The notes beneath the pieces are model-generated. The model was given only the letters and a program-made list of their open reading frames with translations. It was not told the origin of the DNA and ran no database searches. The translations under genes were made by a program, and so were the position numbers. DNA of 64,000 nucleotides from Spirochaetota bacterium (lineage in GTDB: Bacteria > Spirochaetota > UBA12135 > COTS27 > CBDBHE01). The stretch is taken from positions 83,479-147,478 of the forward strand of contig CBDBHE010000007.1 in assembly GCA_965205605.1 (NCBI GenBank), read 5' to 3'. Every line of letters begins with the position of its first letter. The first letter of the stretch is position 1. Positions 3,271 to 56,670 of the stretch are shown piece after piece.

Positions 3271-3400
3271 TTTATATGTGTATTTTTCCTATAGAAAAAG
3301 TATGAAATATTTTATACTTAAATAAAGTTTAAAAAAAATAAAGCTTTAAGCATAATGTTATTATATATAGTCAAATATTTATAAAGAAGGGGTAAAAACA

Positions 3401-6094
3401 ATGTTTTATAAGAGTTTTTTGCTAAAAGGTCTATTTTTATGTTTATTGTTGCTAATAGTAGTACCAACTTTGCAGGGGCAAACGGATGCAGAAAAGAAAA
3501 AATCGGTAGATTACATTCGCTCTATGATGTTGCAGGGCTTATATTATAACGCGGAACCTAAAGCAGAAGTGTTAGGGTTAGGTCAAACAAAAGTTATTGT
3601 AAACGAAAAATCAAGAGCGATATATAACGGAAAAAACTTACAAAATATGGATTTAAATAGCGTCCATGCCTTTTTTGCCTCTGGTACCTACAAAAATATC
3701 AACAAGGACAATATTGTTGATTACCAACACAAATTGGTTGTATTAGCTTTTATTTACCATGGAATAGAAAAATTTTACTTACCACGATTTAAATTTAAAA
3801 ATGTAGAATCTGCTAAGAAACGCAAAGGTAATAAGGATGTACGCAAGCTTATTTTAGAGGGCATAAAGCTTATTTTATCCGAAAAACATCGACCTGGGCA
3901 TGCCTACCATGTGACATATTCTTATCACTACTATCCGAAATACACGACGACTACGATAAGTGCGGTGGCAACTTTATTGTTTGATGAATTCAACAAAAAG
4001 AATGACAATATGGATTTAATAGAAAAAAAAGAATTTGCTGAAGTGTTTAAGAAAATTAAAGATTACTGTAGAATTTTAGGATATGGGGGGGTGCAAATTA
4101 CAGGTGCTAACTGGGCTATTCGAGGCAGCTTTAATGCCCTTTTATATCTATCAGCTGTTAGCCAAGTGGAAGAAATGGAAGCCTTTATGAAGCAGCACGA
4201 TATTTCTATGAGGCGTTTAAATGATGAGGGCGTTACCTACGATTATGGTTTTTTTCATCACACTTATTGTAACTACTGGGGCAAATATGGTATTCATTAT
4301 TTTAAGTTAACCGCTGATTTAGCCATGCTATTGGAGGCCACACCGTGGAAATTTTCCACGTGGAAAAAACGTTTTTTGCGCAATTGCTTGTTAGATGGGT
4401 TTGGACCCCTGGTTTATCGAGGCAATATACTTGCCCTTGAAGGTGGCAAGGCTTCGCTGACGGGAGGCATTACTAAAGCTTACAGTTCACAATACTTAAA
4501 ACCCGTTGAAAAATTAATAAAATTGTGGGGCATTGATGAGTTTGGTGGCTCACGTAAAGACGAAGTACTGGCCTACATCAACAATTTTGATAGTAGTGCT
4601 GACCACAAGCCAGAAGATAGTAAATTAATCGAATCAGAAAACCACAAAGTATATTGGTATAGTGCTAAACAAGTACATCGACGCAAAAACTATGCTGTAC
4701 TAGTCGGTAGGCTTAATAAATGGGTTGGTTCACCTGAACGCGAACAAAGGGTACAACCCGATTTATCTTTTGCTACATCTTCTTACTATGCTTTTGGCTA
4801 CACATCATTTTTAACCAAAGGACCAGAGCATACCCATGCCAGAGCCGCTTGGGATTTTACCACACTTCCAGGTACTACTGTGGCAATTGGTATGCGTGGT
4901 ATTTATAAACTCAAACAAAATATAGAAACAAAGGTGCCATATTCTGGCGGCGTTTCCGATGGCATGTATGGGGTGGGTGGTTTTATTTGTGATGCTGGAA
5001 ATAAGGGAAATAATAGGCGGCATCCCGTTGTGTCTACCAAAGGCAATTTCTTTTTTGATGACGAAATAGTGATGTTAGGACAAAGTATTTCGCGCAAGTA
5101 TGATGTTTTTGAACCTTACCCAAGCCCACCCTGGAGCGATAATTCGGATAATCCTGTGTGGACTACCATCGACCAAACTGATGCTCGTACTTCGCTCACT
5201 TACAACTTAGGCGATAACTCTGCTACAAAAGTCATTCCTAAAATTTCCAATTCCGATCAAGGTACTTCTCTTAAAATAAAAACCAAAGGGGATGTGGCAT
5301 GGTTTCACCACGATGACAAAGGCTACCTTATTTTAGGAAAAAACAAAGCTATTGTGTTAGAGATGAAAAATTTTCCGGTGTACGAAGCTAGATTTTCCCT
5401 TGGTTCGTACACAGGCGCTCTTGTCGCATTGGGTGATCAAACACCTCCTCGGAAATTAAAAAATTTAGGTCGTTCTATTAAAAAAAAATTAATAAAAAAA
5501 TATGGCAGAAAAAAATTAAACGGATTTGCTACTATAAATAGCCCCGAGTTGAAAGTAATAAGGCAACTTCCCTTGATACGTCTTGCCATTGATCACGGCA
5601 AAAAACCTAAAAACGAGTCTTATGACTATGTGTTGCTACCCAATGTAACCGCTAAACAAGTTGAAAATTACGCAAAAAATTTGCCTTTTAACATTATTAT
5701 CAATAAAAAGGGTATTCAAGCAGTCGTGCATAAAAATCTTAATATGGCTCAAGTACTCTTTTATAAAAATGGCGGCAATATTAAATTTAAGCTTGGTGGT
5801 AAAAATATCGAATTAAAAGCTTCTACATACTCTGCTATTTTGCTAGCACGTGATAAAAATAATGAAAAAGCATATCGTATTTCAGTCTCCGAACCCACTT
5901 ATTTGGCAAGCTCTTTGAAAGTAACCATCAAAGGATTGGCCTTTTCTTTAGATACCAAAAAAACCAAAAAAAAAGCTGCTATAGCTACAAAAGTAAAAGG
6001 GAATGACAAAAGCCAAATGACTTCCATAAGTTTTAAACTTTCAAAGAAAAACATAACCGATAAAAGCATAACTGCTCATCTCATTTTGTTGTGA
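3401..6094 (+). CDS. secreted polysaccharide lyase, family 8-like (hyaluronate/chondroitin AC/xanthan lyase family)
   Basis: N-terminal Sec signal peptide (MFYKSFLLKGLFLCLLLLIVVPTLQG). Contains PL8-type blocks: an aromatic catalytic region (YDYGFFHHTYCNYWGKYG), a W..LPGTT block (AWDFTTLPGTTVAIG) and a C-terminal YDYVLLPNV block comparable to ..GYMLIPNV.. of hyaluronate lyases. GC content is clearly above the genomic background. It is a paralogue of 22356-24908 and 51518-53971. Confidence 0.6.
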   Translation: MFYKSFLLKGLFLCLLLLIVVPTLQGQTDAEKKKSVDYIRSMMLQGLYYNAEPKAEVLGLGQTKVIVNEKSRAIYNGKNLQNMDLNSVHAFFASGTYKNINKDNIVDYQHKLVVLAFIYHGIEKFYLPRFKFKNVESAKKRKGNKDVRKLILEGIKLILSEKHRPGHAYHVTYSYHYYPKYTTTTISAVATLLFDEFNKKNDNMDLIEKKEFAEVFKKIKDYCRILGYGGVQITGANWAIRGSFNALLYLSAVSQVEEMEAFMKQHDISMRRLNDEGVTYDYGFFHHTYCNYWGKYGIHYFKLTADLAMLLEATPWKFSTWKKRFLRNCLLDGFGPLVYRGNILALEGGKASLTGGITKAYSSQYLKPVEKLIKLWGIDEFGGSRKDEVLAYINNFDSSADHKPEDSKLIESENHKVYWYSAKQVHRRKNYAVLVGRLNKWVGSPEREQRVQPDLSFATSSYYAFGYTSFLTKGPEHTHARAAWDFTTLPGTTVAIGMRGIYKLKQNIETKVPYSGGVSDGMYGVGGFICDAGNKGNNRRHPVVSTKGNFFFDDEIVMLGQSISRKYDVFEPYPSPPWSDNSDNPVWTTIDQTDARTSLTYNLGDNSATKVIPKISNSDQGTSLKIKTKGDVAWFHHDDKGYLILGKNKAIVLEMKNFPVYEARFSLGSYTGALVALGDQTPPRKLKNLGRSIKKKLIKKYGRKKLNGFATINSPELKVIRQLPLIRLAIDHGKKPKNESYDYVLLPNVTAKQVENYAKNLPFNIIINKKGIQAVVHKNLNMAQVLFYKNGGNIKFKLGGKNIELKASTYSAILLARDKNNEKAYRISVSEPTYLASSLKVTIKGLAFSLDTKKTKKKAAIATKVKGNDKSQMTSISFKLSKKNITDKSITAHLILL

Positions 6095-6261: not shown

Positions 6262-6355
6262 AATTTGGCTCAAAGCTTATCGTGAAAATAAAAAATCGAC
6301 TTTAACTAGACAAAAATATAAGAAAAAAAGCAGATTGAATCTTAGTGCTTTTTTG
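6262..6355. repeat. about 95 bp direct repeat, copy 2, downstream of the lyase gene 3401-6094
   Basis: aatttggctcaaagcttatcgtgaaaataaaaaatcgactttaactagacaaaaatataag..cagattgaatcttagtgctttttt is homologous to 3175-3270. Confidence 0.7.
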
Positions 6356-6506
6356 TATTACATAGCTGGCATAAAAAAAAGACGAAGATGAGAAAAAACA
6401 ATCGTTATTTTCAATTGTTTATTTTCTCTAAATAAGAAAGAATCACTACATCTCTTGTCCCAAGAGGTTTTATTAATAGAAGATAAACATAAGAATCTTT
6501 TTTTTT

Positions 6507-18083: not shown

Positions 18084-19229
18084 TTAATGACCTGACTTAA
18101 TGAAAAAATCTTTTTGATGATTAACATCGTCCTTAGATTCAGGAGTTTCAAACGATTCAATTTGCTCCATTGGTTTTTCAAGTTTTCTAATACGTGTTGA
18201 TTCTAGTTCTCTAAAATCCTTAGAAGCACTTTCAAGACTTTTTCCAACATTATTCATTTTATCAACAAATTTCTGCCATTCTTTTTTGAAAGAAAACACC
18301 GCTTTTTGAATTTCAGCTGCTTTCTTTTCTACCTTAAAAGCCGAAACCGACTGACGAATTAACGACAAAACAGCATAAAGAGTCATCGGAGAACAAAGAA
18401 TGATTTTCCTGTCCAGCGAATAATCAATTAAACCTTTATCCTCCACATTAATAAACGCATACATACTTTCATGAGGGATAAAAATAAGCGCATAATTAAT
18501 GGTTCCATTTTTAGGATCCACATATTCTTTGTCCCCAATTTGTTTAATGTGATTTCTGATATCTTTAATAAATCCTTTCTTACTTTCTTCTTTTTCCAAT
18601 TTACTTTTTGCTTCTAAAAATGAATTATAATTCTTAAGAGGAAACTTCACATCCATATAAACCTTTAATTTTCCCGGTAAAAAAAACGTATAATCAGGTC
18701 GAATTTTTTTCCCATCTTCTCCCTCCTGCTGCTTTTGTCTCTCATAACTCTTGCCCTCAACAAGGCCAATAATACTAATAATATCCTCCGCCGCTCTCTC
18801 GCCCCAAGCACCTCTCTCTTGTGAATTAGAAAGAATCCGATTGAGCTTTGTTGTTTCTTGCCCTAAAGAACTAATTTGTTTTTGAGAATTTTCCAATTGC
18901 CCTTTAAGAAAAATCGTATTGTCCCCTAAATATTTAAGCTGAATCCCCATCGTTTTAAAATGCGACCCTAAACTCTCTTCCGAACTTTTTAAACGTGACC
19001 CCAAACTCTCTTGCGAACTTTTTAAAAGAGCCTTAAACTTATCTTCAGCTAAATTAAAAAAAGAATTTTGATTTTTATCTAACGCCTCTTTAGAAAGACG
19101 CCCAAAAAGATTTTCAAACTCTTTTTCAATCGAATGATTCTTCTTATGAAAAAAAAGAGCTAAAAACCAACCTAACCCACTCCCTAAGAGAATCCCAAAA
19201 AAGAACACCTGTAAAGAAAGTAAAACCAT
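18084..19229 (-). CDS. rmuC: DNA recombination protein RmuC
   Basis: N-terminal transmembrane segment, then coiled-coil, then a C-terminal RmuC domain (..DYTFFLPGKLKVYMDVKFPLKNY.., ..LCSPMTLYAVLSLIRQS..). Confidence 0.65.
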   Translation of the reverse strand: MVLLSLQVFFFGILLGSGLGWFLALFFHKKNHSIEKEFENLFGRLSKEALDKNQNSFFNLAEDKFKALLKSSQESLGSRLKSSEESLGSHFKTMGIQLKYLGDNTIFLKGQLENSQKQISSLGQETTKLNRILSNSQERGAWGERAAEDIISIIGLVEGKSYERQKQQEGEDGKKIRPDYTFFLPGKLKVYMDVKFPLKNYNSFLEAKSKLEKEESKKGFIKDIRNHIKQIGDKEYVDPKNGTINYALIFIPHESMYAFINVEDKGLIDYSLDRKIILCSPMTLYAVLSLIRQSVSAFKVEKKAAEIQKAVFSFKKEWQKFVDKMNNVGKSLESASKDFRELESTRIRKLEKPMEQIESFETPESKDDVNHQKDFFIKSGH

Positions 19230-22167: not shown

Positions 22168-22355
22168 AAGCATTGCTTGTTTATAGTTTTTTCAGATTTA
22201 TCAAAGTGAAAAATAAAATAAACAATCAAAAAAAAGTAATGGTTTAAAATATTAAATTAAATTAAATTAAAGTTACAATAGAGTGTAATAAATGATATTG
22301 TATAATTTACACACCTTAAATCAATATTAGAGCATTATAATAGGAGAAAAAAAAT

Positions 22356-24908
22356 ATGAATTTTAATCGTAGAAATTTTTTAAAAACAACTACTATCAGT
22401 AGTGGTCTTTTATTATTACCATTTAGTTTAGAAAAAAAATTATGGGGACTGGAGTCTTCGGGGTCTTTACTTAAAGACAAACAAGCCTTTTTGGATAAGT
22501 TAAGACTTGGGTTTTCAAAAACTGGCTATCGAAAAAATACTGATGAAGGATTGGAAGTGAAGGCTCTTGTAAAGGAAGGCCTTAAATCTCTTAATAAAAA
22601 AATCAGCGAACAGGGGACATTAATAGAAAAACCAATCAATTTAAAAAACATCCCAACGTATTGTAGGTATGCTTGGGCCCTTGCTATATTATCAAAAGGA
22701 AAAAATGAGAGTGATGGAGAGATTTATGGGGTAATAAAGAAAAAGATGTATCGTATGGCTATAATCATTCATAGGGTAGAAGTAACAAAGCCCAATAGTT
22801 ATAAACGTTTTCATTTTTCGTGTTTTGCCATACCGAATACTTTTGTTAATGTGTATTTTTATAATTTTAAAGATATGGTTGGAGTAGAGAAAGGGACCAT
22901 AAAAGACCCCTTAATCGTAAAAGGACACGACGTAATTGTCGAACTAGCAAAGCAGGCTTGGACACAACCGTATAGGAATGATGAAACTGATAAAAATCCA
23001 TTCCAAATTGCTCGTTTTAAAGGGCATGTTTGGTGGGTAACGGCTAATGCTATCACTTATAGGCCTGTCTATCCAGTTGCAGTTGCTTTAAATTCTATTG
23101 TTGGTATTGATGTATTGGTGGAGGTCTGTAATAGAGCCATTGATTTTCTTTACCCAGGAAACAAAAAAGACCCATTTTGGGAGGAAGGGTTTACCTCTGA
23201 TGGTCTTGGATGGGGACATGGCACTCAAAATTATACATTTGGTTACCCTGCACAAGGGGTTCAGGCACTACTTGACATGAAAAAAAATTTCCTCAATTCA
23301 CCTTGGGATAAAGGAAGTCGTGAACAAACTAGAACTAATGTGAAAATATTTTACGTACTCAAAGCTTTTGTACGTGGATCTCAGTGGATGAGGTACAAGG
23401 GTTTCATACACCCAGTAACAGGACGTAATTGTAAACAATATGTTGAGCCAAAAGCTAGAGATGCTTCTAAAAGTAAATTTGTTGGTATACTTAAAAATAT
23501 ATTAAATCATTTTGTAGATTATCTCCCTTCGGTTATTAAAGATAAACAAAAATTTGGAGTGTATGAAAAAGAAATATTAGATTTAAAAAAAGAAATGAAA
23601 AGTAAAACAGGTGTTTTTATGGATGATTATAAAGGTGTTTATACAGGAACAAAATATTTTTGGTGCAATGACCTGATGATTCGTAAAAGTAGAAATTTTT
23701 ACTGTACCATTAATATGGCTTCATCAAGAGTGAGTGGTATTGAGTTTGGGTCTGATGATAAAAATCAAAATGATATGTATCATTATCATTCTGCAGCTGG
23801 TTCGACTTTTTTTTCTAAGGAAGGTTATGAAGCCTGCCATGCTCTTGGGGGCCATAATCTTACTGCTTTACCAGGGGTGACGGCTAAACGTGGGGAAAAT
23901 AGTGACATTTTTAGTATCACTACTTGGAAGGGTTTTAATAGTTTCCACAACTTTTGTGGTGGCACAGGGTTACGTGGGCGTAATGCATGTTGTGGTTTTA
24001 TCCAAGAGTTTAATACAAGGAATGAAAAAATTAAAAGCCTACCTAAGGTTGTAATGGGGGTGTATGTGAAGAAAGGTTATTTTATTTTTGATGACATGAT
24101 GCTTGCTTTAGGGACTGGCATTAAATTAACCTCATCTGGATCTAACAAATTCCCGATATGCACAACGGTCGAAACTGCTTATTTTGAAAACCCAATAACC
24201 GTTACAGAAAATGGGAAATCAAAAACTTACGATACAACAAAAAAAAATAACGTTAATTTTGTTTTAAAGAAAAGTAAAACAGATGCCCTCAATTGGATCG
24301 AGCAAGAAAATAAATTTGCGTATGCTCCCCTCAGTAAACATAACAAGAGTGCTGTAGAGGTGGAAATTGGTGATCGAAAAACGATTTGGAACAGACAAAG
24401 TTATCCAAATCAGAAGAAAAAAAACTTACCTAAAAATATGAACGTTCTTGATATTCGTATTAATCACGGCAAGAGCCCATTTAAGGGCGGATATGCGTAT
24501 TTAGTCTATATGGGTGATAAAAAAGCTTCTCAGTCATTTAAAACATCCCCTATACAAGTCATTTCTAATAGCAGTAAAGTACAAGCGGCTTTGTATTCTA
24601 ATGGAAAAAATAGTCAAGTGGTACAGGCTGTTTTTTATAAAAGTTCTACTTTAGAAATCACAAAAGATTTTAAAATAAAAGCTACTATGCCATGTATTTT
24701 TACGTTTGAAGAGGAAAATGGTAGTGTGAAAGTGACTTTGTGTGATCCCCTATTCGATGTTTCTTTAAAGTCTATAAAAATTTCAATAACAAAGCCAATT
24801 GAAGGCAAAGCGGTTAAGAAGAAAAAAAAATGGTATGAAATCAACCTAAAGAGTGCTAGAAAGCCTTATGTAGGTCGACCAGTGAGTGCAAATTTCAAAT
24901 TAGTTTAG
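22356..24908 (+). CDS. polysaccharide lyase family 8-like protein with a twin-arginine (Tat) signal peptide
   Basis: The N-terminus MNFNRRNFLKTTTISSGLLLLPFS matches the Tat motif RRxFLK. PL8-type blocks are present: DGLGWGHGTQNYTFGYP, LTALPGVTAKRGE and a C-terminal AYLVYMGD. GC is above background. Confidence 0.55.
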   Translation: MNFNRRNFLKTTTISSGLLLLPFSLEKKLWGLESSGSLLKDKQAFLDKLRLGFSKTGYRKNTDEGLEVKALVKEGLKSLNKKISEQGTLIEKPINLKNIPTYCRYAWALAILSKGKNESDGEIYGVIKKKMYRMAIIIHRVEVTKPNSYKRFHFSCFAIPNTFVNVYFYNFKDMVGVEKGTIKDPLIVKGHDVIVELAKQAWTQPYRNDETDKNPFQIARFKGHVWWVTANAITYRPVYPVAVALNSIVGIDVLVEVCNRAIDFLYPGNKKDPFWEEGFTSDGLGWGHGTQNYTFGYPAQGVQALLDMKKNFLNSPWDKGSREQTRTNVKIFYVLKAFVRGSQWMRYKGFIHPVTGRNCKQYVEPKARDASKSKFVGILKNILNHFVDYLPSVIKDKQKFGVYEKEILDLKKEMKSKTGVFMDDYKGVYTGTKYFWCNDLMIRKSRNFYCTINMASSRVSGIEFGSDDKNQNDMYHYHSAAGSTFFSKEGYEACHALGGHNLTALPGVTAKRGENSDIFSITTWKGFNSFHNFCGGTGLRGRNACCGFIQEFNTRNEKIKSLPKVVMGVYVKKGYFIFDDMMLALGTGIKLTSSGSNKFPICTTVETAYFENPITVTENGKSKTYDTTKKNNVNFVLKKSKTDALNWIEQENKFAYAPLSKHNKSAVEVEIGDRKTIWNRQSYPNQKKKNLPKNMNVLDIRINHGKSPFKGGYAYLVYMGDKKASQSFKTSPIQVISNSSKVQAALYSNGKNSQVVQAVFYKSSTLEITKDFKIKATMPCIFTFEEENGSVKVTLCDPLFDVSLKSIKISITKPIEGKAVKKKKKWYEINLKSARKPYVGRPVSANFKLV

Positions 24909-47224: not shown

Positions 47225-48247
47225 ATGAATCAATTTTTATTATTAAAAATTTTTATCTTCTGCTTTTTTTTAGAATCTGCTTTCCCCATTCCAAAAATCT
47301 TAAAAGAAGTTTTAAATAAAAGTTACGACTACCAATCTGCTCTTAATAAAAAAGAATACTATACTGGTGAAAAAGCCTTCTTTTCAAATCAAGTTAAAAA
47401 AGGAGATTATAATATTTCAGGCAAACCTATTCTTCTTCATTTACAGCAAGGTCATTTCTTAAAAAATCAAGAAAAAAAAATCCAAGAAATTACAGATGCT
47501 TTTGGTTCGCTGACATTTGCATTTAATGTTGGAAAAAAAGAAGGAACCTATATGGCTTCTGCTTATTTTCTCAATTCAAAACACGGTTATACCGAACACG
47601 CCAACTTTACCCCTTACATGGTCATCTCAAAATGGAAACTATGGATTCAGGTGCTTATTTTAATGAGTATGATGATCTTTTTTTATTTTAAAGAAATTAA
47701 AAACCATTCGATTGAAAAGTCAGTTCATTTTTTTTTTTTAAGCCCTTTTCTTGTAAAAGTAAAAGGAAAGAAAAAAAAATATAAATTAAATGCCTTATTT
47801 TGGATTCAAATTTCTTATGGGATTGTTTTTTTAACTTTTTTAGCTTTTTATTTAGCTTTTTATTCTAATCTTTATTTAGTGCTTTCTTTATTTTTTATCT
47901 ACACATTTTTTTTTAAAAATAGTAAAGTAGATACTTCTTTTTTTATTTATAGTTTTTTTATAACTTTTAGCTGGTTTATTTTAAAAAATTATGGACAGAC
48001 ATTTCTTTTTTCTAGTTTTTTTTCCCACCCTATTTTTATTGTTCTTTTATCATTTTTGATAATGTGTTTTCCTAGTCCTTTATTTTTTATTCCTTTAAGT
48101 GTTCTTCTAATTTTTTTAACTTCTTTTACACCTATTAACATTTTATACATCGTTTTATTTTCTGTTTTTACTTTTATCATCCACTGCTTTTTGACCTCTA
48201 ATACTTTTAAACAAATAAACAACCTACTCCCAAAGAAAAAAAAGTGA
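47225..48247 (+). CDS. membrane protein: signal peptide, about 130-aa periplasmic domain, then multiple transmembrane helices; overlaps the sigma-factor gene by 4 bp
   Basis: Hydrophobicity pattern only. No family was recognised. Confidence 0.45.
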   Translation: MNQFLLLKIFIFCFFLESAFPIPKILKEVLNKSYDYQSALNKKEYYTGEKAFFSNQVKKGDYNISGKPILLHLQQGHFLKNQEKKIQEITDAFGSLTFAFNVGKKEGTYMASAYFLNSKHGYTEHANFTPYMVISKWKLWIQVLILMSMMIFFYFKEIKNHSIEKSVHFFFLSPFLVKVKGKKKKYKLNALFWIQISYGIVFLTFLAFYLAFYSNLYLVLSLFFIYTFFFKNSKVDTSFFIYSFFITFSWFILKNYGQTFLFSSFFSHPIFIVLLSFLIMCFPSPLFFIPLSVLLIFLTSFTPINILYIVLFSVFTFIIHCFLTSNTFKQINNLLPKKKK

Positions 48248-49200
48248 AGAAGATAAAAACAAAAAAAAAAAAAACCAATTTTGCAAGCACTACTTCAGCT
48301 TACATAAAAGAAATACCTGGTTATTTTCTAAGTAAAAACGAACAGCTCCATTATGGAAAGCTTTTTCAAAAAGGCACCCTAAAAGAGCAAGATAAGGCGA
48401 TGAATAAACTCGTTAACTCATCGCTTTATCTTGTTATTAAATTAGCAAAAACGGTGGGGCATTCAGGATTAGAGCTAGATGACTTAATCCAAGAAGGCAA
48501 TATCGGCCTTATAGAAGCTGTTAAACGTTATGATTATACAAAAGGATTTGCTTTTACTACTTATGCAACCTGGTGGATACGACAATCTATTTTGAAATCA
48601 ATTAAAGAAAAAGCCACCAACGTAAGATTACCTAATCATATCTATGACCTTCAAAGAAAAATTGATGAAGAAGAAAAAAAGTTTTTAAAGAAAGGTGAGA
48701 AAATTGACTCAACAACCATCGCCCATAATTTAGGAAAAAAAGTAGAACAAATTAAAAAGCATAAAGTTCATATTAAGATGAGATATACTAAAAACCTAGA
48801 TGATTTTTTTAATGGGAACCAAAATACAGATAATTTAAAAATTAAGGTTTCAAATGAAACAGTCTTTGATGAAATTGCAAAGGGAGAAATTCAAAACTTT
48901 ATTAAAAAGCTTTTGAAAAAAAATATTTTAAACGAACGTGAAGTAGAAATTGTTTGCTTAAGATTTGGACTTATTAACCTCATTAACCCAAGTCACTATA
49001 AAGCGTACCAAAAAATCTTGTCTAAAACCAAAAAAAATCGTCAAAAAAATCGAAAAATAAAATTAAACCTTACTTTACAAGAAGTCAGCTTTTGTATTGG
49101 TATTAGCAAAGAACGCATTCGTCAAATCGAAGGAATCGCTATTAAAAAATTAAAAAGCTACCGAAAATTTAATGAAAAAGTTTTTTCTAACCTTCTTTAA
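48244..49200 (+). CDS. RNA polymerase sigma factor, sigma-70 family (group 3, FliA/WhiG-like), GTG start
   Basis: Region 2 LIQEGNIGLIEAVKRYDYTKGFAFTTYATWWIRQSI. Region 4 HTH LTLQEVSFCIGISKERIRQIEGIAIKKL. The 5' end of the gene carries a 14-A homopolymer. Confidence 0.75.
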   Translation: MKKIKTKKKKTNFASTTSAYIKEIPGYFLSKNEQLHYGKLFQKGTLKEQDKAMNKLVNSSLYLVIKLAKTVGHSGLELDDLIQEGNIGLIEAVKRYDYTKGFAFTTYATWWIRQSILKSIKEKATNVRLPNHIYDLQRKIDEEEKKFLKKGEKIDSTTIAHNLGKKVEQIKKHKVHIKMRYTKNLDDFFNGNQNTDNLKIKVSNETVFDEIAKGEIQNFIKKLLKKNILNEREVEIVCLRFGLINLINPSHYKAYQKILSKTKKNRQKNRKIKLNLTLQEVSFCIGISKERIRQIEGIAIKKLKSYRKFNEKVFSNLL

Positions 49201-49330
49201 AATTTTTTAAAAAAATTTAATAACCCATCAATAACTCCTTAATGACTATTTTAGGGCAACTTGGATTTTAACTATTTACTTTAAGCTTGTTGTTTATTTA
49301 TAATGGGGTATAATTATAATATTACGTTAA

Positions 49331-49500
49331 AGATTTATGATTTAATACTTTATATTTTCTAAAATTAAAGCAGAATCTATTGTTAGGTATAAATATTTAT
49401 TTTATTAGATCAAATAACCCTAAAGGAAATCCATATGATATTTAAATGTTTATTAGTCTTAATAGCGATGCAGTTAAATGACTTGTTTTCTTATGAAGCT
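49331..49500. repeat. duplicated 5' module, copy A: upstream block plus signal-peptide coding region of gene 49435-51408
   Basis: agatttatgatttaatactttatattttctaaaattaaagcagaatctattgttaggtataaata followed by ATGATATTTAAATGTTTATTAGTCTTAATAGCGATGCAGTTAAATGACTTGTTTTCTTATGAA. It is near-identical to 51456-51583. Confidence 0.75.
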
Positions 49501-51408
49501 GATACTAAATCCAACACCTCTCAAACAAAAAAACTATACAAAAAATCCTTACCCATTAAAACTAAAATCCTATCCATTAACAAACCTATCTCTTTTACTG
49601 AAGAAGTAACAGATAATTTCCATATTGTCTATAATAAAAATAAAAAACACGCACTCTATGATCACAATATAAAAATAGAAGAGGAGGCTCTTTTAACACC
49701 ATTTACAAAAAAAAAAAAAATGAAACCCTTATTTTTGTATTATAAAAAAGGATATCTAGCTAATAATGCGATTGTCTCTATCTATATTCATAAAATTAAA
49801 ACTAAATCAACTCTAGGAGGCAAAAATGGATTAATATTAGGGGACGCTTCTATCAGTGTGAAAACAAGCGAGACTCTATCTTCAGTAAGCATAAGACATA
49901 TTAAAAATAAAAAGGAAAATTACATTTTTTATTTTCCTGGGATACCTAAAGATACTAAAGATGGATTAGCACTCTCAGCCAAAATGTCCTCAAACGATAC
50001 ACTACAATGGTTCTTAACTTATAATTCATTTTCTTATAGAGGAGAATGTTTATTAAAGCAAACTTCTAAATACTACCCCATTGGTCTCTATCTAACACCC
50101 TCTAAACATCCACAGGAGATAAGTTCTTTTACTATTCGAAAGCTACTACAATCAAAGGAATTAAAAGCTAAATATGCCTTTAAAGAATTAACACATAAAT
50201 ATAACCCAAAATTCCATCCCCAGTATCAAAGCAGTCAATTAAAGTACGATCGTAACCACCCTGCTACAAAATACCTCGTGCTTAAATCCATACAAGGGCC
50301 TTTACACAAAGAAGAGATCGCAGGTTTAGAGAATTATTTATTAAACTATGGCAAACCCACTATTAACTGGCTAAATTATTATTTTAGAAGGACTTATATG
50401 CCCTATATGTTGGAATGGGTATGGGAAAAAAAGAATAACCAAAAATTAATCAACCAATCTATCCAAATGGCACAAAGTGTCATTGCCCATAGAAGTGATA
50501 AACTTGGGGACGAAGGTATTTATACTATAGGTCAGGTCCCTGTATGGCCCCATTACAGGGGTGTACAATTCTTAAAAGGAAAGATGACCTTGAGTTCTGG
50601 TTTCGCATCATTTGGTTCTGCTCTTTCATGGATAACTGTCCCTTCTAAACTAATTGCAAATAATAAAAACCTATGGGATCAAACAACAAGTATAAATAAC
50701 AAAAACTATAAACAAATAGCCTATGAGTTAATTGATGAAGCAATGGTGACTATTGATTTTACTTTAAAACACTATCTCGAAAAGAAAACAAAACTCTTAA
50801 AATCCCCTGCATGGGGAGCAGAACCTGAAGGTTGGGTTCCTCAGTGGAATCGTTCACTTCCTTTTATAACGGCCTTAATACCTCTCATTGATGCGATGAA
50901 AGCTTTTAAAATCCACCCTAAAAAAATAGTATTATTAGAAGAAATTGTAAAAAGATACATTTCGTATTTTTTATCCTATGTCAAGTACTACGATCACAAT
51001 GGAAAAACCGTACTCAACTATCCATATGGAGACTACCGTACTGTGAATAATCCAGAACAATCTGAAGACATCGGTCATGCCGGTTTTGATGGGCGTCAGC
51101 TTCAGATGATCTACAAAGCGAAAAGATATAGCTTAAAGGAAAAATTTCCAAAAGCCTATGCTAACACACTGGCAGATATCGTGTGTAAAGGAAATGGTGT
51201 CTTTAAAAAACGTTTAAAAGGAGACAGAACCTTTGCTTTTACCTATTTTGCAGGATTAGAAGGGCTTATCTGGCTTGCTCACTGGCGTCCTGAGCTCTAC
51301 GAGCACGTCATTGAATACACCTATAACAAAGTTCTCAAAAAGAGGCTCGATTCCAGGTTTGTCTGGGAAGTCCTTAAATTAAAAGAACAAAAACAGCAAA
51401 AAAAATAA
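49435..51408 (+). CDS. secreted hypothetical protein sharing its promoter and signal-peptide module with the PL8 lyase gene downstream; possibly a polysaccharide-lyase-associated alpha-helical protein
   Basis: Signal peptide MIFKCLLVLIAMQLNDLFSY. Length 657 aa. GC above background. No catalytic block confidently recognised. Contains a 14-A tract at 49707-49720. Confidence 0.5.
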   Translation: MIFKCLLVLIAMQLNDLFSYEADTKSNTSQTKKLYKKSLPIKTKILSINKPISFTEEVTDNFHIVYNKNKKHALYDHNIKIEEEALLTPFTKKKKMKPLFLYYKKGYLANNAIVSIYIHKIKTKSTLGGKNGLILGDASISVKTSETLSSVSIRHIKNKKENYIFYFPGIPKDTKDGLALSAKMSSNDTLQWFLTYNSFSYRGECLLKQTSKYYPIGLYLTPSKHPQEISSFTIRKLLQSKELKAKYAFKELTHKYNPKFHPQYQSSQLKYDRNHPATKYLVLKSIQGPLHKEEIAGLENYLLNYGKPTINWLNYYFRRTYMPYMLEWVWEKKNNQKLINQSIQMAQSVIAHRSDKLGDEGIYTIGQVPVWPHYRGVQFLKGKMTLSSGFASFGSALSWITVPSKLIANNKNLWDQTTSINNKNYKQIAYELIDEAMVTIDFTLKHYLEKKTKLLKSPAWGAEPEGWVPQWNRSLPFITALIPLIDAMKAFKIHPKKIVLLEEIVKRYISYFLSYVKYYDHNGKTVLNYPYGDYRTVNNPEQSEDIGHAGFDGRQLQMIYKAKRYSLKEKFPKAYANTLADIVCKGNGVFKKRLKGDRTFAFTYFAGLEGLIWLAHWRPELYEHVIEYTYNKVLKKRLDSRFVWEVLKLKEQKQQKK

Positions 51409-51455
51409 GACCCATTCAATCCTAAAAATTGGGATTCAGAAAGAATTAGTTTCGT

Positions 51456-51583
51456 AGATTTATGATTTAATATTTTATATTTTCTAAAATTAGAGTAACA
51501 TCTATTGTTAGATATAAATGATGTTTAAATACTTATTAGTCATATTAGTCATGCAGTTAACTGTCTTGTTTTCTTATGATAAA
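51456..51583. repeat. duplicated 5' module, copy B: upstream block plus signal-peptide coding region of gene 51518-53971
   Basis: agatttatgatttaatattttatattttctaaaattagagtaacatctattgttagatataaat followed by gATGATGTTTAAATACTTATTAGTCATATTAGTCATGCAGTTAACTGTCTTGTTTTCTTATGAT. Confidence 0.75.
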
Positions 51584-53971
51584 TTTCAACTTTTATTAGA
51601 CACTCCAGTTGATGCTGCAGTTTTTGATTTAGACAGAGCTGGTAGTCGGGATCTAATCAAAGAAAAACAAAAGAATCCAAATTATAAGGCCGTTTTTGAT
51701 AAAAAATCTCTACCTGATATGAAATGGGTTAAAAAAATGATGATTAAGTTGGATAAAGTTAAATCATTAAGACAAAGTCTACCCAAAGTTAAAGTTGATT
51801 TAAAAACAATAAAACATAGAAAATTACCTTATCCTGATAAAGCAGAAGCAGAAAAATATTTAGTTCATTGTAGTTTTCTTAATGATTTAATCTCTCTTTG
51901 TAGGGTAGTACGGTTAAAAGAAGAACTAAAAAATGATAAAGCCTTATCTAAAAAAGTGATTGATTTGATTTTTAAAAATTTGAATTTCTATATGGTAGAA
52001 TTTGCACCAGATAGGCCTTATTGGAGAGTGACGATGCGTTTTAGCAATTATAAAGCTACACGTTTAGCATCCCCCGTTCTTGCTCTTTTAGACAGGATAG
52101 TGCTTCTGCTCCATCCTTATACCACTAAAAAGACGTTAGAGGCTAATCAACGTAAATTTGTTTGTTTAAATGTATTGAATTACACAGACCACCTTATAAA
52201 TAATTCAGTTGGTGCTCAAAATAGAGGTGTGAACTGGATGGCAAGATTAAACCATATAAATACCCATTTTTTTACTAAACATCTCTATGGCTTTACTGGG
52301 GCATTAAAAGAGTTAAAGGAGCATTTAGCTGATGGATATGAATATGCTCCTTTTCAAAGAAGAATGGGGACTTTACCAGATGGTGGATTTTGGCATCATG
52401 GATCTCAAGCGTATTGTGTTCCCTATGGAACTGGAGACTTCAATCATGCTGTTTATTATCTTAAAAATTTTGAAAAGACACCGCTTGAACTAGATCGTAT
52501 TCATTATGCAGTCTATGAAACTCAATTGTTAGATAAATGGCAATATATTATTTACAATAAAGAATGGCTAGATCTATCAATAACAGGTGGAAAAAACGTA
52601 GCTCAAATTAAACGTTACAAAGCGAAAGTCTACCCTCGGACACTAAGTAAGATGGTCTCTAATATTATGAAACTTGATAAAAGCAAACTAACACGTTTAA
52701 AGGAATTGAAAGAGCTAAGTAAGAAAATAAAAAATAAAGAGTTTGAAAGTAAGCTTATAATTAATAAAAATTTTTGGCATTGGGAATATATGGTACATCG
52801 TCGACCTGGTTGGTATATTGGTTTCAAAGGGATGTCGTCAAGGACAATCACTGCTGAATGGGATCAAAACGCCCATCTTACTAGTGGTCATACTGCGATA
52901 ATGAGAAAAGGAGATGAATATTGGAGAATTCGACCGGCTCTTAATTGGACTGCGTTACCAGGTATAACTACAGAACAACTTCCTTCTAAATATTTACTAA
53001 ATCGCTTCGTAGCGACAACGGGTCAATCAGATTTTGCTAATGGAGTTAGTGATGGGAAGTATGGTTTATTTGCATTTGAGCACAAACCAAAAGATAAGGT
53101 TATAGGAACCGTTCATGCTAATAAAGCAGGCTTCTTCTTTGAAAAGGGGATGGTTGCATTGACTTCAGGCATAAACCGACATAATCGTGGGTGGGGAAAT
53201 GATGTTTGGACTACACTTGACCAACGTATACGTCGAGGGGTAGTTACAGCTTTTATCAATGGTAATATAATTGTTTTTGAAGATCAGGAGTTTAATAAAT
53301 CATTTGATGTACGTGGATTTGCATGGGTACACCATGATGGCATTACTTATTTTTTGCCTGAAAATCAAAATCGAAAGATCATAATAAAAAGTGATAGAAA
53401 GCAAGGGGAAGTCAAAGACGTATTACCTCATAACAAAAAAGGTCTTACTTATGACCAAACTGTTTTTTTGGTAACCGTTAATCATGAAAAGCAGGTAATA
53501 AATGATAAATGTTCATATATGGTCATTCCAAATATGAGCTTAGATGAAGTTAAAAAAATTACTAGTTTTCCATTTTATAAAATTATTAAAAATGATATAA
53601 AGCAACAAGCTGTTATTGATGAAAATCAAGGTATTTCACAGTTGGTTTTTTATAGTTGGGGAGAGATTAAAATCCCAAATGGTTTAATAGTATCCTCTGA
53701 ACATCCATTAATCTTAATGTTACGGAAGGACTTAAAAAAGATTTCTGCAGTGGTAGCGAATCCTTTACAGCTTAAGAAACATATGGATTTTTCTCTACAT
53801 AAAAACAAATCTGCAATTAGCTTTTTTATAAGTGGTAAATTATTATCAAAAAATAAGAAGGCTATTTGTACTTATGATAAAAAATTAAATAAAACAAAAG
53901 TGTCCGTTTTATTTAATAAAGCTGCTGGATATGAGGGGGATTCTGTCACGGCAGAGCTTTTAGTTAAATGA
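51518..53971 (+). CDS. secreted polysaccharide lyase, family 8 (hyaluronate/chondroitin AC/xanthan lyase-like)
   Basis: Signal peptide present. DGGFWHHGSQAYCVPYGTGDFN matches the FW.RDGSYIDHTNVAYTGAYGN catalytic His/Tyr block of hyaluronate lyases. ..RPGWYIGFKGMSSR.. matches ..RGWYTSDGM... ..NWTALPGITTEQLP.. matches ..VNPYKMPGTTETD... C-terminal ..SYMVIPNMSLDEV.. matches ..GYMLIPNVDRATF... GC above background. Confidence 0.7.
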   Translation: MMFKYLLVILVMQLTVLFSYDKFQLLLDTPVDAAVFDLDRAGSRDLIKEKQKNPNYKAVFDKKSLPDMKWVKKMMIKLDKVKSLRQSLPKVKVDLKTIKHRKLPYPDKAEAEKYLVHCSFLNDLISLCRVVRLKEELKNDKALSKKVIDLIFKNLNFYMVEFAPDRPYWRVTMRFSNYKATRLASPVLALLDRIVLLLHPYTTKKTLEANQRKFVCLNVLNYTDHLINNSVGAQNRGVNWMARLNHINTHFFTKHLYGFTGALKELKEHLADGYEYAPFQRRMGTLPDGGFWHHGSQAYCVPYGTGDFNHAVYYLKNFEKTPLELDRIHYAVYETQLLDKWQYIIYNKEWLDLSITGGKNVAQIKRYKAKVYPRTLSKMVSNIMKLDKSKLTRLKELKELSKKIKNKEFESKLIINKNFWHWEYMVHRRPGWYIGFKGMSSRTITAEWDQNAHLTSGHTAIMRKGDEYWRIRPALNWTALPGITTEQLPSKYLLNRFVATTGQSDFANGVSDGKYGLFAFEHKPKDKVIGTVHANKAGFFFEKGMVALTSGINRHNRGWGNDVWTTLDQRIRRGVVTAFINGNIIVFEDQEFNKSFDVRGFAWVHHDGITYFLPENQNRKIIIKSDRKQGEVKDVLPHNKKGLTYDQTVFLVTVNHEKQVINDKCSYMVIPNMSLDEVKKITSFPFYKIIKNDIKQQAVIDENQGISQLVFYSWGEIKIPNGLIVSSEHPLILMLRKDLKKISAVVANPLQLKKHMDFSLHKNKSAISFFISGKLLSKNKKAICTYDKKLNKTKVSVLFNKAAGYEGDSVTAELLVK

Positions 53972-54202
53972 AAAAACTAAAAAATGGTGCAGGCCTGTGG
54001 GATACGGGTAATTATTATTATTATTTATTGTAAAGGAAGGATAAAAAAAAAGTCTTCTTTTGAGGGCGTGCTGGAGATAAATTAGATTTTGATAAAAATC
54101 GATTCATCGTTCTTTAAAAATAAAAAAATTAGTTGTATAATTAACCCTATTAATAATGATATAAAGAATTATTTAAAAGAAAAGAAACAAGGAGATGAAA
54201 TT

Positions 54203-55381
54203 ATGAAAAACAAACAATTAATTTGTTGCACTTTGTTGAGTATTTTGATGTTTGGTAATCTGCTCGCAAAGAAGGCATTTTCAGACCAGAAACCAGAATA
54301 TTTTGGTGACCCCAATTTTATTTTTGACGAATCCAAGTATGATGAAAATTATCCTGACATGAAAGAGTGGGCGAAAGCAGGTGTTAAGGGAGGGATCCCT
54401 TACAGGGGGACGCTTCCGATTATTGCACGCATTACTACAAAAGATAATATTCAAAAAGCTATTGATCAAGCCAATCCTACTAAACCGTCAGTAATTCTAC
54501 TCGCAAATGGGATCTACACAATCACTAATTCTGTGAAAATGAAGTCTAAGATCATCTTACAGGGCACAGATAAAAACAAAACAATCATCAATGTGAACAT
54601 GCGCCAAAAGTGGAAAGGATGGGGCAGAAAAAAAATCGGTATTTACTTTCGTAAGGTCAATTATGCTGGATTGGAAAACCTGACTGTACGTTTTGACTCC
54701 GGTGGAATTGAACCTGTAGATAACAAAAATTATTCAGACAAATGGCGCAAGGGTATGATGAATAATGATGTAAAAAGAGATGACTTTTATGTGGCGCTTG
54801 TAAAATTCAGGGAAGCTACAAACTGTTGGGTGGATGATTGTATGTTGCTTAATTCTGGTACCGACCCAGTAATTACTTCAGGTAACGACATGCACCTTAC
54901 TTTCCGAAATAACTTTGTGGATCGTGCACACAATAAAGGCGCAGGAGGTAATGGCTATTTTACCATGCGTGGACAGTATACATTAATATGTGGCAATACT
55001 ATCAAGCGTCTACGTCATTTTGCTATTGAAGTAGGTGCTAAATATTGCGTGGTAGTAAACAATAAATTTGAAGTGGATGTAAACTTTCACCAAAGAGACA
55101 AGGGTCACAATTTGGTGGAAGGCAATAGTATACGCATCCCTGAATGGCACCGACACGCTGCCACCCATAGCGGCTGGGCGGTATTTGCAGCAGGTGGTTC
55201 TATTCACGGTGCTACAGGTCCAGGTAACCGTATGTTTAACAATACCAGCGATCTACGTAATTCTGGCCCTAGATTTGCAAATCCGGACACAGTCTATAAA
55301 ACCCAAGGAAAATCAATCAGAGTCCACAGCACTACACCACCAAAACATGGCACTCTTTATGCTGTAAAGCTTGACTTTTAA
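54203..55381 (+). CDS. secreted right-handed beta-helix (pectate-lyase fold) protein, putative polysaccharide lyase or glycosidase
   Basis: The ORF is open from 54089, but ATG 54203 has the SD aaggagatgaaatt upstream and is followed by the signal peptide MKNKQLICCTLLSILMFGNLLA. Repetitive ..N.G.D..I..GN..H-type segments appear. GC is roughly 40-45% by eye, the highest in the window. The protein ends in ..KLDF. Confidence 0.5.
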   Translation: MKNKQLICCTLLSILMFGNLLAKKAFSDQKPEYFGDPNFIFDESKYDENYPDMKEWAKAGVKGGIPYRGTLPIIARITTKDNIQKAIDQANPTKPSVILLANGIYTITNSVKMKSKIILQGTDKNKTIINVNMRQKWKGWGRKKIGIYFRKVNYAGLENLTVRFDSGGIEPVDNKNYSDKWRKGMMNNDVKRDDFYVALVKFREATNCWVDDCMLLNSGTDPVITSGNDMHLTFRNNFVDRAHNKGAGGNGYFTMRGQYTLICGNTIKRLRHFAIEVGAKYCVVVNNKFEVDVNFHQRDKGHNLVEGNSIRIPEWHRHAATHSGWAVFAAGGSIHGATGPGNRMFNNTSDLRNSGPRFANPDTVYKTQGKSIRVHSTTPPKHGTLYAVKLDF

Positions 55382-56361
55382 CTAATTAGCACGAAAAATC
55401 GTTTCCTAAATTAGTATGTAGAACTTAGGTACTAGATTTTCTTTTAGGATTTCAATAAGTAGTGTAAATGAATAGAAGATTTTTTACAAAATCGACCAAG
55501 ATAAAATTGTACTAAATACTGATTAATGTGTATACTTGCTAAAAAAGCACCCCATTTTCAATATTTATGATTTTTAAGAGAACAACTTTAGTTAAATTGA
55601 TAGAAGTAATTCGAAATTACCCAATTTTAATTTTATCTTTTTATCATTCAGCTCAAATTACAATCATATCGCTCTGGGGACTGCGATACCACTGGCACAT
55701 ACATTGAGAATGTTTAATTTTAAAGGTTTTATTTCATTTAAAAAGATGATGAATCAAAAATTATAAATGGCTCTTCTTTGCTATACTGATTGCGTTTATT
55801 TTTGCAACACCAAATGCTGTTTTGGAGTATAAGAAATTTTGGTCTGGTTTCTACTGGAACTACACAATAGCTCCAATCTGGGGTGGACAATTAGGTGATA
55901 TAACTTAATTACAAAAACTACCTATTACTTTAAACAGCAAGATGATTTTTCAAAAATGGGCTAAACTTAATCTTAAGCCTAGCACATTGATCTATAAGAG
56001 TCCTTTAATATACTTTGCCAATAAGTAATGTCACTAAAAGATTAACCATATAAATTAAATATGCCGTACTTTGGTGGAAGAGCAAGAAATCAGTTAAAAT
56101 AGGCTAAAGAAAATAATAATAAATACAGAGATGGAAAGAAAAAAGATACTAATTAATGGGAGTTATACTACTAAAGCTCTTTCAAGGAGTAAACCCTGAC
56201 ATCATTTCTTCAGCTCATTATAATCGTTTTTTAGGTGTTAAAAGAGGGTATCTTAAAGTAAAAGACAATTCAAAAATTGAAGCATCATATTAATATTGTG
56301 CATTTTCACATAGAGTTTAGGCCGTGTAAAGAAAGCGAATTGGAAAAGGAAAAAACATGGT

Positions 56362-56434
56362 TGGGTGAGGACAGAATCGAACTGCCGACATCTACCTTGT
56401 AAGGGTAGCGCTCTACCAATTGAGCTACTCACCC
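56362..56434 (-). tRNA. tRNA-Val (anticodon UAC)
   Basis: Reverse complement GGGTGAGTAGCTCAATTGGTAGAGCGCTACCCTTACAAGGTAGATGTCGGCAGTTCGATTCTGTCCTCACCCA folds as a cloverleaf. Anticodon loop CTTACAA. CCA not encoded. Confidence 0.85.
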
Positions 56435-56670
56435 AAGATTTTGTTAAATAGTGCTATCATATAATGAAAAGACTCAATGAGTCAAACTTTTTTCAAAAAA
56501 TAATTTCTTATCATTTTTTTATCTTTTAAAACAAAAAACATACTTCAATTTTTAAAAAAATCTTATAAGATAAGAAAAGCAAAGCAAAATGTTCCAAATA
56601 AAAAAAAATTCTTTAAAACCAAAGTTGTATCAAATAACAAAAAAAAGTTATAATTTTTTTTAAAAATTCA

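Follow-up and report, generated by a model that had tools for sequence, protein, structure and literature searches.

A common upstream block and signal-peptide-coding segment at the start of two unrelated, predicted secreted carbohydrate enzymes in a spirochaete-related bacterium

Two neighbouring genes of a Spirochaetota bacterium, here called A and B, begin with nearly the same DNA, which extends from upstream of the start codon into the coding sequence, and then go on to encode entirely different proteins. The question that this locus raises is how one 5' end came to stand ahead of two unrelated bodies, and whether it acts, as the initial annotation proposed, as a common cassette for expression and export. 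We addressed it within a window of 64,000 nucleotides (64 kb), the whole stretch of DNA that was analysed, in which the two genes lie in a chromosomal context of housekeeping genes (dxs, adk and dnaE). At its borders, the region has a tRNA-Val gene and ~1 kb of non-coding sequence. The features of the locus, in their order along the sequence, are the following.

48244-49200, + strand: divergent sigma-70-family gene, 318 aa, immediately upstream of the repeat; 4-nt overlap with the membrane-protein gene before it
49331-49394, + strand: 64-nt upstream block of copy A; a leader that may act as a promoter; 91% identical to copy B
49393-49434, + strand: segment unique to copy A in the gapped alignment, 42 nt; carries the Shine-Dalgarno (SD)-like AAAGGAAAT at 49422-49430
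49435-49496, + strand: signal-peptide-coding part, copy A, codons 1-21, MIFKCLLVLIAMQLNDLFSYE
49435-51408, + strand: gene A, 657 aa, predicted secreted; uncharacterised carbohydrate-enzyme-like family
51409-51455, + strand: spacer between the gene A stop and block B, 47 nt, without a terminator-like site
51456-51519, + strand: 64-nt upstream block of copy B; runs up to and into the start codon; without an SD
51518-51579, + strand: signal-peptide-coding part, copy B, MMFKYLLVILVMQLTVLFSYD
51518-53971, + strand: gene B, polysaccharide lyase family 8 (PL8; chondroitin AC / hyaluronate lyase-like) by Pfam
53993-54009, + strand: terminator-like hairpin and T-run directly after gene B, the sole one in 48900-54400
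54205-55381, + strand: third secreted protein, with a weak pectate-lyase-like beta-helix match, an unrelated signal peptide of its own and AAGGAG as a strong SD

The initial annotation described about 65 bp of near-identical sequence ahead of both genes, and this held: the two upstream blocks agree at 58/64 nt, their six mismatches falling at 49348, 49368, 49371, 49373, 49374 and 49387 of copy A. The similarity resumes at the start codons, where 49435-49496 and 51518-51579 agree at 53/62 nt (85% identity, 9 mismatches). This shared coding part was correctly noted, at a length of roughly 22 codons that our alignment shortens to 20.7. Of the 21 N-terminal residues, 13 are identical between the two proteins, and BLASTP of protein A against protein B found no similarity past residue 21, in line with the claim that the two diverge completely from there on. 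The extra segment of about 40 bp that was said to carry the SD of copy A is equally real, at 42 nt including AAAGGAAAT. The description as a tandem duplication does not apply in the strict sense, since 2.1 kb separates the copies, which lie on either side of the gene A body. A gapped local alignment of both 5' regions scored 71.25, as compared with a maximum of 20 among 1000 dinucleotide shuffles of these regions (mean 10.6, sd 1.4) and a maximum of 17 in control alignments of 692 other natural windows from the same sequence, so that a coincidence of AT-rich sequence, named at the outset as the outcome that would speak against the repeat, can be dismissed. No third copy was detected in the 64-kb window, either of the DNA (19-mers with up to 3 mismatches, and a repeat finder) or of the 23-aa peptides (tblastn).

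The end of the repeat at codon 21 coincides with the predicted junction between a Sec signal peptide and the mature protein. In both copies a charged n-region and a hydrophobic core of at least 7 residues occur within the first ~20 residues: the n-region is positive (K4) and is followed by CLLVLIAM in copy A or YLLVILVM in copy B, with mean Kyte-Doolittle values of 3.29 and 3.11, respectively. The likeliest cleavage site, by inspection only, is LFS/Y, with a fitting Ser at -1 and an atypical Leu at -3. The homologues of either protein, PL8 lyases and relatives of gene A alike, have hydrophobic N-terminal signal peptides of their own in this position. From composition and position, we infer that residues 1-21 function as a Sec-type signal peptide. 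The lipobox L-x-x-C is absent in both copies, the sole Cys being residue 5 of copy A, which is Tyr in copy B.

The bodies that follow this signal peptide belong to different families. Gene A had no match in Pfam or NCBIfam and had seemed an orphan in a word-based search, a status that the 97 remote homologues recovered by an exhaustive HMMER search rejected. An AlphaFold2 model built with their alignment reached a pLDDT of 76.7, as compared with only 33.5 for single-sequence prediction, and its predicted architecture comprises a disordered linker, a beta-sandwich (residues ~75-240) and an (alpha/alpha)6 domain (~270-657). Foldseek matched this model to GH94, GH116, GH76, GH95 and lectin-like folds, and a profile search of PDB sequences with gene A gave no match. 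The homologues of gene A have their own signal peptides, with homology starting after about residue 95-130.

Gene B, for which the public annotation takes the second ATG as the start (51521; 816 aa), matched the Pfam families Lyase_8 (PF02278, 8.9e-48) and Lyase_8_C (PF02884, 2.1e-9), both above the gathering score, as well as the NCBIfam chondroitinase-AC family at 2.4e-44, below its cut-off. Its closest homologues are 41-46% identical, align from about residue 22 to the end and bear signal peptides unrelated to that of gene B; the two other PL8 genes of the window are 21-24% identical to it. The N-terminal alpha-helical domain PF08124 was undetected in gene B, yet residues ~22-415 align throughout with the homologues, and a distant PL8 match (P0013, 23% identity) carries this domain. 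N235/N239, H293/H294 and Y299/Y303 are invariant in 9 sequences, H294 and Y303 having the His-x8-Tyr spacing, and the His-x8-Tyr and Asn residues are candidate counterparts of those that are catalytic in characterised PL8 enzymes. Compared with PL8 enzymes in general (chondroitin AC lyase, hyaluronate lyase, xanthan lyase), gene B has the super-sandwich and C-terminal beta-sandwich domains and aligns in full length to PL8-annotated homologues; its signal peptide, however, is that of the neighbouring gene and not of the family. Neither a gene A homologue nor the cassette was found in the neighbourhoods of the nearest PL8 homologues, L015 and L016, and a literature search for small-genome spirochaetes with PL8 genes returned nothing relevant.

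Three observations on the homologues point to a functional link between the two bodies. One gene A homologue, P0019, lies directly ahead of two sulfatase genes; the same 524,880-bp contig also carries a PL8 homologue, P0004; and another gene A homologue is fused to an FGE-sulfatase domain. On these grounds, the substrates of enzymes A and B are probably sulfated or acidic glycans of one kind, and with such a common target the sharing of export and expression signals would make biological sense.

The two copies have diverged at nearly the same rate at silent and at amino-acid-changing positions (pS 0.18, pN 0.15, pN/pS ~0.85; 0.094 in the upstream block), and the differing codons, 7/20 or 8/21 if codon 21 is included, all change the amino acid, mostly hydrophobic for hydrophobic. 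This near-neutral divergence points to one old DNA-level copy event rather than to selection on the sequence. We thus favour, with some reserve, a single old copying event at the DNA level as what placed the same 5' end ahead of two unrelated enzyme bodies. The copied unit would have measured ~125-166 bp and comprised the 64-nt upstream leader and the first 21 codons with the Sec-type signal peptide; it would have been transferred by non-reciprocal or illegitimate recombination between the starts of a beta-sandwich/(alpha/alpha)6 carbohydrate-active-like protein (A) and a PL8 lyase (B), and would have drifted by ~12% since, in a near-neutral manner. Through this shared 5' end, A and B would use one export signal, and the sequence immediately before their start codons would be the same as well. 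The 42-nt indel that holds the SD would most simply be a deletion in B. As to the direction of copying, the hints conflict: GC3 (0.30 in gene A, 0.23 in gene B, 0.20-0.24 in native genes) suggests that gene A is more recent than B, and the indel suggests a deletion in B. With only two copies at hand, selection and shared ancestry are not rigorously separable.

How much of an expression signal travelled with this copy is less clear-cut. The initial annotation saw an expression and export cassette fused to different catalytic bodies; its export half stands, as a signal-peptide module on two non-homologous secreted enzymes, and its expression half is a candidate role only, as a scan with the sigma-70 consensus revealed no site of at least 9/12 matches within 49331-49394 or 51456-51519. 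The best candidate in the block, found by eye, is ATGATT (49337-42)-17 nt-TAAAAT (49360-65), with 8/12 matches, and the best consensus match of all (10/12; TTTACT-18-TATAAT, 49275-49304) lies upstream of block A. Taken together with the lack of a terminator-like site between genes A and B, this makes transcription as an operon equally possible. A reading that we regard as tentative, with a real but smaller chance of being right, holds that the block is a 5' untranslated leader only, that a promoter upstream of block A, such as TTTACT-18-TATAAT, transcribes A and B as one operon, and that copy B is an internal leader brought along with the copy of the signal peptide; the spacer of just 47 nt and the position of the only terminator, after gene B, fit it as well. 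However, in DNA this AT-rich, promoter-like matches turn up about as often as expected by chance (26 sigma-70-like sites in the region, as compared with 24.7 expected), so that their presence or absence says little. Moreover, the 8/12 candidate has both hexamers unchanged between the copies, and four of the six mismatches cluster just downstream of it, where the transcription start would fall.

Under the copying event that we favour, the block may hold a weak promoter, ATGATT-17-TAAAAT, from which gene B would receive a leader of ~20 nt without an SD, like most genes here. With a candidate promoter role for the block, the co-regulation of genes A and B that was originally put forward is no more than plausible. 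Copy B indeed runs straight into ATGATG (TATAA-ATGATG), with an anti-SD pairing energy of +0.4 kcal/mol as compared with -5.7 kcal/mol in copy A. The concern over the missing SD of gene B found no support: SD-like pairing was found in 8/32 ATG-start genes of the window and is missing from the other 24, including dxs and dnaE, so that its absence from copy B is not unusual. We also considered a structured RNA leader or riboswitch and rejected it, since folding gave no significant signal (z = +0.73 and -0.55), no inverted repeat or palindrome is conserved in both copies, and the only Rfam matches in the window are two tRNAs.

The repeat also has the layout of an insertion footprint, in which the body of gene A would have entered in frame after a resident PL8 signal peptide and duplicated a target of ~125 bp, by a Campbell-type single crossover or by site-specific integration, leaving direct repeats on either side of an insert at 49497-51455. 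The window has one further genuine direct repeat (3175-3275 and 6262-6358; ~100 nt, ~85%), which lies around 3401-6094 and flanks another PL8 gene in the same manner, and the GC3 of gene A exceeds that of gene B and of the native genes. Synteny with the nearest relative is limited to dxs, adk and the membrane-protein gene; downstream, the locus of that relative has no counterpart of the adjacent sigma gene, gene A, the PL8 gene or the third gene. This difference, the tRNA-Val gene and the non-coding DNA at the borders speak for an insertion. However, the fusion left by such an insertion would have to be in frame and functional, with its joint precisely where the signal peptide ends, unless the cassette was already part of the incoming molecule; integrase and recombinase genes are both absent, and the 42-nt indel would demand a second event. 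We consequently consider this origin unlikely. Generalising it, so that both repeat-enzyme gene-repeat arrangements reflect one recurrent mechanism of this small, AT-rich genome that inserts foreign enzyme bodies at targets of ~100-125 bp, with gene A joined in frame to the promoter and signal peptide of a resident gene, is a long shot; if true, it would amount to a cassette system that sends acquired enzymes straight into the secretion pathway.

Selection might instead have kept the two copies alike. The block would then be a promoter or the binding site of a dedicated regulator, such as the divergent sigma factor encoded upstream, the N-terminus would direct a specialised form of export, and further members would occur elsewhere in the genome. 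The sigma-70-family gene does lie directly upstream, and the upstream block is slightly better conserved than the coding part (91% and 85%). Nevertheless, the pN/pS of ~0.85 indicates a peptide that drifts almost neutrally, the block lacks a conserved palindrome, neither DNA nor peptide recurs in the 64 kb, and the signal peptides and upstream regions of the third secreted enzyme next door and of the two other PL8 genes are unrelated to the cassette, making this account quite improbable. Two further explanations are refuted. A chance match of low-complexity sequence has on its side the ~20% G+C of the region and the three exact matches of a 24-mer from the block in public metagenomes, themselves chance hits without flanking homology or related proteins, and fails on the alignment scores and on the collinearity of the match across the start codon, where it keeps the reading frame of both genes. 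Descent of A and B from a tandem duplication, with only the N-terminus still recognisable, would suit two adjacent, same-strand, carbohydrate-enzyme-like genes, and fails on the dissimilarity past residue 21, on the contrast between a beta-sandwich with an (alpha/alpha)6 domain (A) and a PL8 super-sandwich (B), and on each body having its own family of homologues whose members carry other signal peptides.

The shared start is real and, in the reading that we favour, a fairly ordinary product of old DNA copying, a modest new example that opens no new field. If this reading is right, it would represent a clean two-gene case of a small-genome bacterium making acquired enzymes usable, in which an existing 5' end was re-used through a copy of ~125 bp and no new expression or export signals had to evolve. 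Comparable arrangements have been described in the ssl and spl genes of Staphylococcus aureus, p35 of Mycoplasma penetrans and vsp of Mycoplasma bovis, in which a conserved or recombining segment spans the upstream region into the signal-peptide-encoding 5' end (PMC2568036). In those systems the genes with a common 5' end are paralogues, in which the shared end is linked to antigenic or phase variation, through site-specific inversion in the case of vsp, whereas the bodies here are non-homologous enzymes and show no sign of switching. By analogy, the closest counterpart is the promoter/leader cassette of the erp genes (OspE/OspF/Elp, with the "upstream homology box") of Borrelia burgdorferi, so that the kind of arrangement is already known: there, likewise, a conserved upstream region and leader peptide are found on diverse mature parts, and the host here is spirochaete-related, as is Borrelia. 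The erp genes, however, encode lipoproteins with a lipobox and a sorting sequence, occur in multiple copies on cp32 prophages and have operator sites that have been mapped for BpaB, BpuR and EbfC, whereas the present case comprises two chromosomal copies in the 64-kb window, a signal peptide without a lipobox and a block that is at most a candidate promoter. The erp products are surface antigens and those encoded here are enzymes; the pair would therefore extend promoter and leader sharing from surface-antigen families (erp, ssl/spl and the mycoplasma lipoproteins) to non-homologous secreted glycan-degrading enzymes, and it provides a natural signal-peptide swap that bears on how much of a signal-peptide sequence matters.

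Two neighbouring genes on the + strand, gene A and gene B, begin with the same DNA, consisting of an upstream block and the first codons of the reading frame (copy A and copy B). Alignment with MAFFT and a repeat finder placed the matching segments as follows.

49331-49394 and 51456-51519: upstream block pair, 64 nt, 91% identical
49435-49496 and 51518-51579: signal-peptide-coding pair, 62 nt, 85% identical
49435-51408 (+): gene A, 657 aa
51518-53971 (+): gene B, a polysaccharide lyase gene

Near-identical DNA upstream of both genes is thus found where the initial annotation had put it. Its additional ~40-bp segment with a Shine-Dalgarno (SD) motif in copy A corresponds to 42 nt (49393-49434) carrying AAAGGAAAT at 49422-49430, across which a gapped local alignment links the two halves, and in copy B the block indeed runs straight into the start codons (TATAA-ATGATG). 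This alignment scored 71.25, as compared with a mean of 10.6 (sd 1.4, maximum 20) in 1000 dinucleotide-preserving shuffles and with at most 17 when the same 5’ region was aligned to 692 other windows of this sequence, which rules out the low-complexity, AT-rich coincidence that had been proposed as a refutation. The repeat is confirmed and highly significant. Only two copies occur in the 64-kb window, where a scan with a 19-mer core, allowing up to 3 mismatches, detected no real third DNA site and tblastn with the 23-residue peptides gave no hit better than E = 0.1. The 42-nt indel, flanked by just 2 nt of microhomology, is most simply read as a deletion in copy B.

Comparing the two products by BLASTP revealed an alignment of residues 1-21 (13 identical) and nothing further. 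The module therefore sits on two different bodies, as the initial annotation had it, with the repeat ending at codon 21 (…LFSY-E/D) rather than at about codon 22. Both N-termini carry a lysine at position 4 and a hydrophobic core of eight residues (mean Kyte-Doolittle 3.29 in copy A and 3.11 in copy B), and are located where homologues of the two products have signal peptides, so that a cleavable Sec signal peptide is a reasonable prediction; cleavage would most likely fall at LFS|Y, where the residue at -3 is atypical. Eight of the 21 shared codons differ, all eight changing the amino acid (Nei-Gojobori pS = 0.18, pN = 0.15), which points to an almost neutral drift of the peptide within a loose hydrophobicity requirement. 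Upstream, 6 of the 64 nt are mismatched (0.094), and four of these mismatches lie close together at 49368-49374. Judged from these sequences, the likeness between the copies would reflect common descent of the DNA and not selection for a particular sequence.

The body of gene B belongs to polysaccharide lyase family 8 (PL8; Pfam Lyase_8, 8.9e-48; Lyase_8_C, 2.1e-9), with a match to the NCBIfam chondroitinase-AC model (2.4e-44) that falls under the model cut-off. Its nearest homologues are 41-46% identical, the named ones coming from Bacteroidota (e.g., Tamlana, Flavobacteriaceae and Puteibacter), and align from about residue 22 through the C-terminus, having unrelated N-terminal signal peptides of their own. 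In the public annotation the second ATG serves as the start of gene B, giving 816 aa. With gene B, the window has three PL8 genes (3401-6094, 22356-24908 and 51518-53971), which share only 21-24% identity and have different N-termini, the second beginning with MNFNRRNFLK, which looks like a twin-arginine signal. Three such genes in 64 kb of a small genome of ~30% G+C represent a heavy investment in acidic-glycan degradation.

Gene A gave no match in Pfam or NCBIfam, and its family none among PDB sequences. A word-indexed search suggested an orphan, a view overturned by an exhaustive HMMER search that found 97 homologues (24 at E <= 1e-30), most of them matching over residues ~270-653. An AlphaFold model built with the homologue alignment (mean pLDDT 76.7, and >90 across most of the C-terminal domain) comprised three parts.

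N-terminal ~75 residues: disordered
Residues ~75-240: beta-sandwich
Residues ~270-657: (alpha/alpha)6-type helical domain

Foldseek against the PDB matched gene A to the glycoside hydrolase/phosphorylase architectures GH94, GH116, GH76, GH95 and GH121, and its N-terminal domain to lectin-like sandwiches, in both cases with low TM-scores that are evidence of fold class only. F5/8 type C carbohydrate-binding domains occur in some homologues and an FGE-sulfatase domain in one, and the homologue P0019 is directly followed by two sulfatase genes. We infer that the product of gene A is a secreted enzyme active on carbohydrates, from a family not yet described, and that it probably acts on sulfated glycans, the predicted substrate class of the chondroitin-lyase-like PL8; the family as a whole may be an undescribed one for sulfated glycans. 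P0019 lies on one 524,880-bp contig with P0004, a PL8 homologue, and these two have different N-termini, so that the common 5’ end of genes A and B is specific to the present genome. The gene A coding sequence also contains a run of 14 adenines (49707-49720; …TKKKKMKP…), which could be a hotspot of slippage, frameshift or phase variation.

The proposed cassette is partly supported. The shared signal-peptide module stands; the weak part is the promoter and co-regulation reading, for which a consensus scan offered no support: neither block contains a sigma-70-like site of 9/12 or better, and such sites are no commoner in this AT-rich region than chance predicts (26 against an expected 24.7). Each block may nevertheless hold its own weak promoter, the best common candidate by eye being ATGATT-17 nt-TAAAAT (8/12; -10 at 49360-49365 and 51485-51490). 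Its hexamers are fully conserved between the copies and the mismatches cluster where transcription would start, a pattern that is not statistically meaningful at 6 mismatches in 64 nt. Alternatively, genes A and B may form one operon in which the block is merely leader: the 47-nt spacer between the gene A stop and block B contains no terminator-like structure, the sole one of the region following gene B (53993-54009), and the top-scoring site overall (TTTACT-18-TATAAT, 10/12, 49275-49304) lies upstream of and outside block A. A further candidate, built on the TATAAA that closes the block on its 3’ side, cannot serve gene B, because transcription would begin inside its coding region. Over the shared segment, neither copy showed RNA folding beyond that of shuffled controls (z = +0.73 and -0.55), Rfam gave nothing, and no inverted repeat was conserved in both copies. 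Both blocks contain a minimal ORF, ATG-ATT-TAA (49337-49345 and 51462-51470), probably by chance in AT-rich DNA.

The missing SD of gene B, raised as a concern in the initial annotation, proved unremarkable. When the 20 nt preceding each start codon were paired with a generic anti-SD (-4.5 kcal/mol or better; background rate 11%), only 8 of the 32 ATG-start genes in the window showed SD-like pairing, dxs, dnaE and most other housekeeping genes being among those lacking it; it is thus copy A, and not copy B, that departs from the norm of this genome. Half of the eight are secreted carbohydrate-enzyme genes, with the following upstream regions.

3381-3400 and 22336-22355: the two other PL8 genes
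49415-49434: gene A
54185-54204: beta-helix gene, encoding a third secreted protein (weakly pectate-lyase-like)

For this last gene, the mechanical ORF start is a TTG at 54089, adding the stretch 54089-54204; the true start is almost certainly the ATG at 54205, with AAGGAG lying 8 nt before it and the signal peptide MKNKQLICCTLLSILMFGNLLA after it.

The known system that comes closest is the Borrelia erp family (OspE/F/Elp, ‘upstream homology box’), in which a conserved promoter/operator and leader peptide precede diverse mature parts and co-expression results (PMC10016077). The likeness is one of event architecture and not of membership: the present pair lacks a lipobox and a prophage plasmid, numbers two copies only, and has at most a candidate promoter in place of the promoter and operator of the Borrelia genes. 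Conserved upstream-plus-5’ segments are also known in S. aureus ssl and spl, M. penetrans p35 and M. bovis vsp (PMC2568036), but these are paralogous antigen families, whereas genes A and B have unrelated bodies. With its shared 5’ end, the present pair adds a small new case to a known type of event.

A less likely reading is that the duplication arose as a side effect of an insertion, the repeats being the footprint of a gene A body inserted behind the resident PL8 signal peptide. In its favour, the ‘repeat - enzyme gene - repeat’ layout occurs twice within 64 kb: apart from the present pair, the window contains a single genuine direct repeat (3175-3275 and 6262-6358; ~100 nt, ~85%, with a 5-nt indel and a terminal T-run), which flanks the first PL8 gene.

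The window lies in a 742,916-bp NCBI/ENA contig (~30% G+C). The nearest DXS in the species collection (57% identical) is from a Spirochaetota MAG that keeps the order dxs, adk, membrane-protein gene, downstream of which the sigma factor, gene A, PL8 and beta-helix genes are absent; its sole sigma-factor match at this locus falls in a 585-aa ORF on the other strand, upstream of dxs. Here, a divergent sigma-70-family gene (48244-49200; 318 aa) overlaps the membrane-protein gene by 4 nt and immediately precedes the cassette; its product falls far short of the cut-off of every equivalog model, RpoD and RpoS included, and matches region 4 only in part. Gene A (0.30) and the beta-helix gene (0.38) have a higher GC3 than native genes (0.20-0.24) and gene B (0.23), which suggests, and does not prove, that the enzymes were gained by horizontal transfer at different times. 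Given this, the stop in synteny after the membrane-protein gene, and a terminal ~1 kb without a convincing ORF (55382-56360) followed by tRNA-Val (56358-56435, - strand), the region resembles the degraded margin of an acquired island. Elsewhere in the window, two tandem 33-nt units (85% identical; 18953-19018) lie inside a minus-strand gene (18084-19229).
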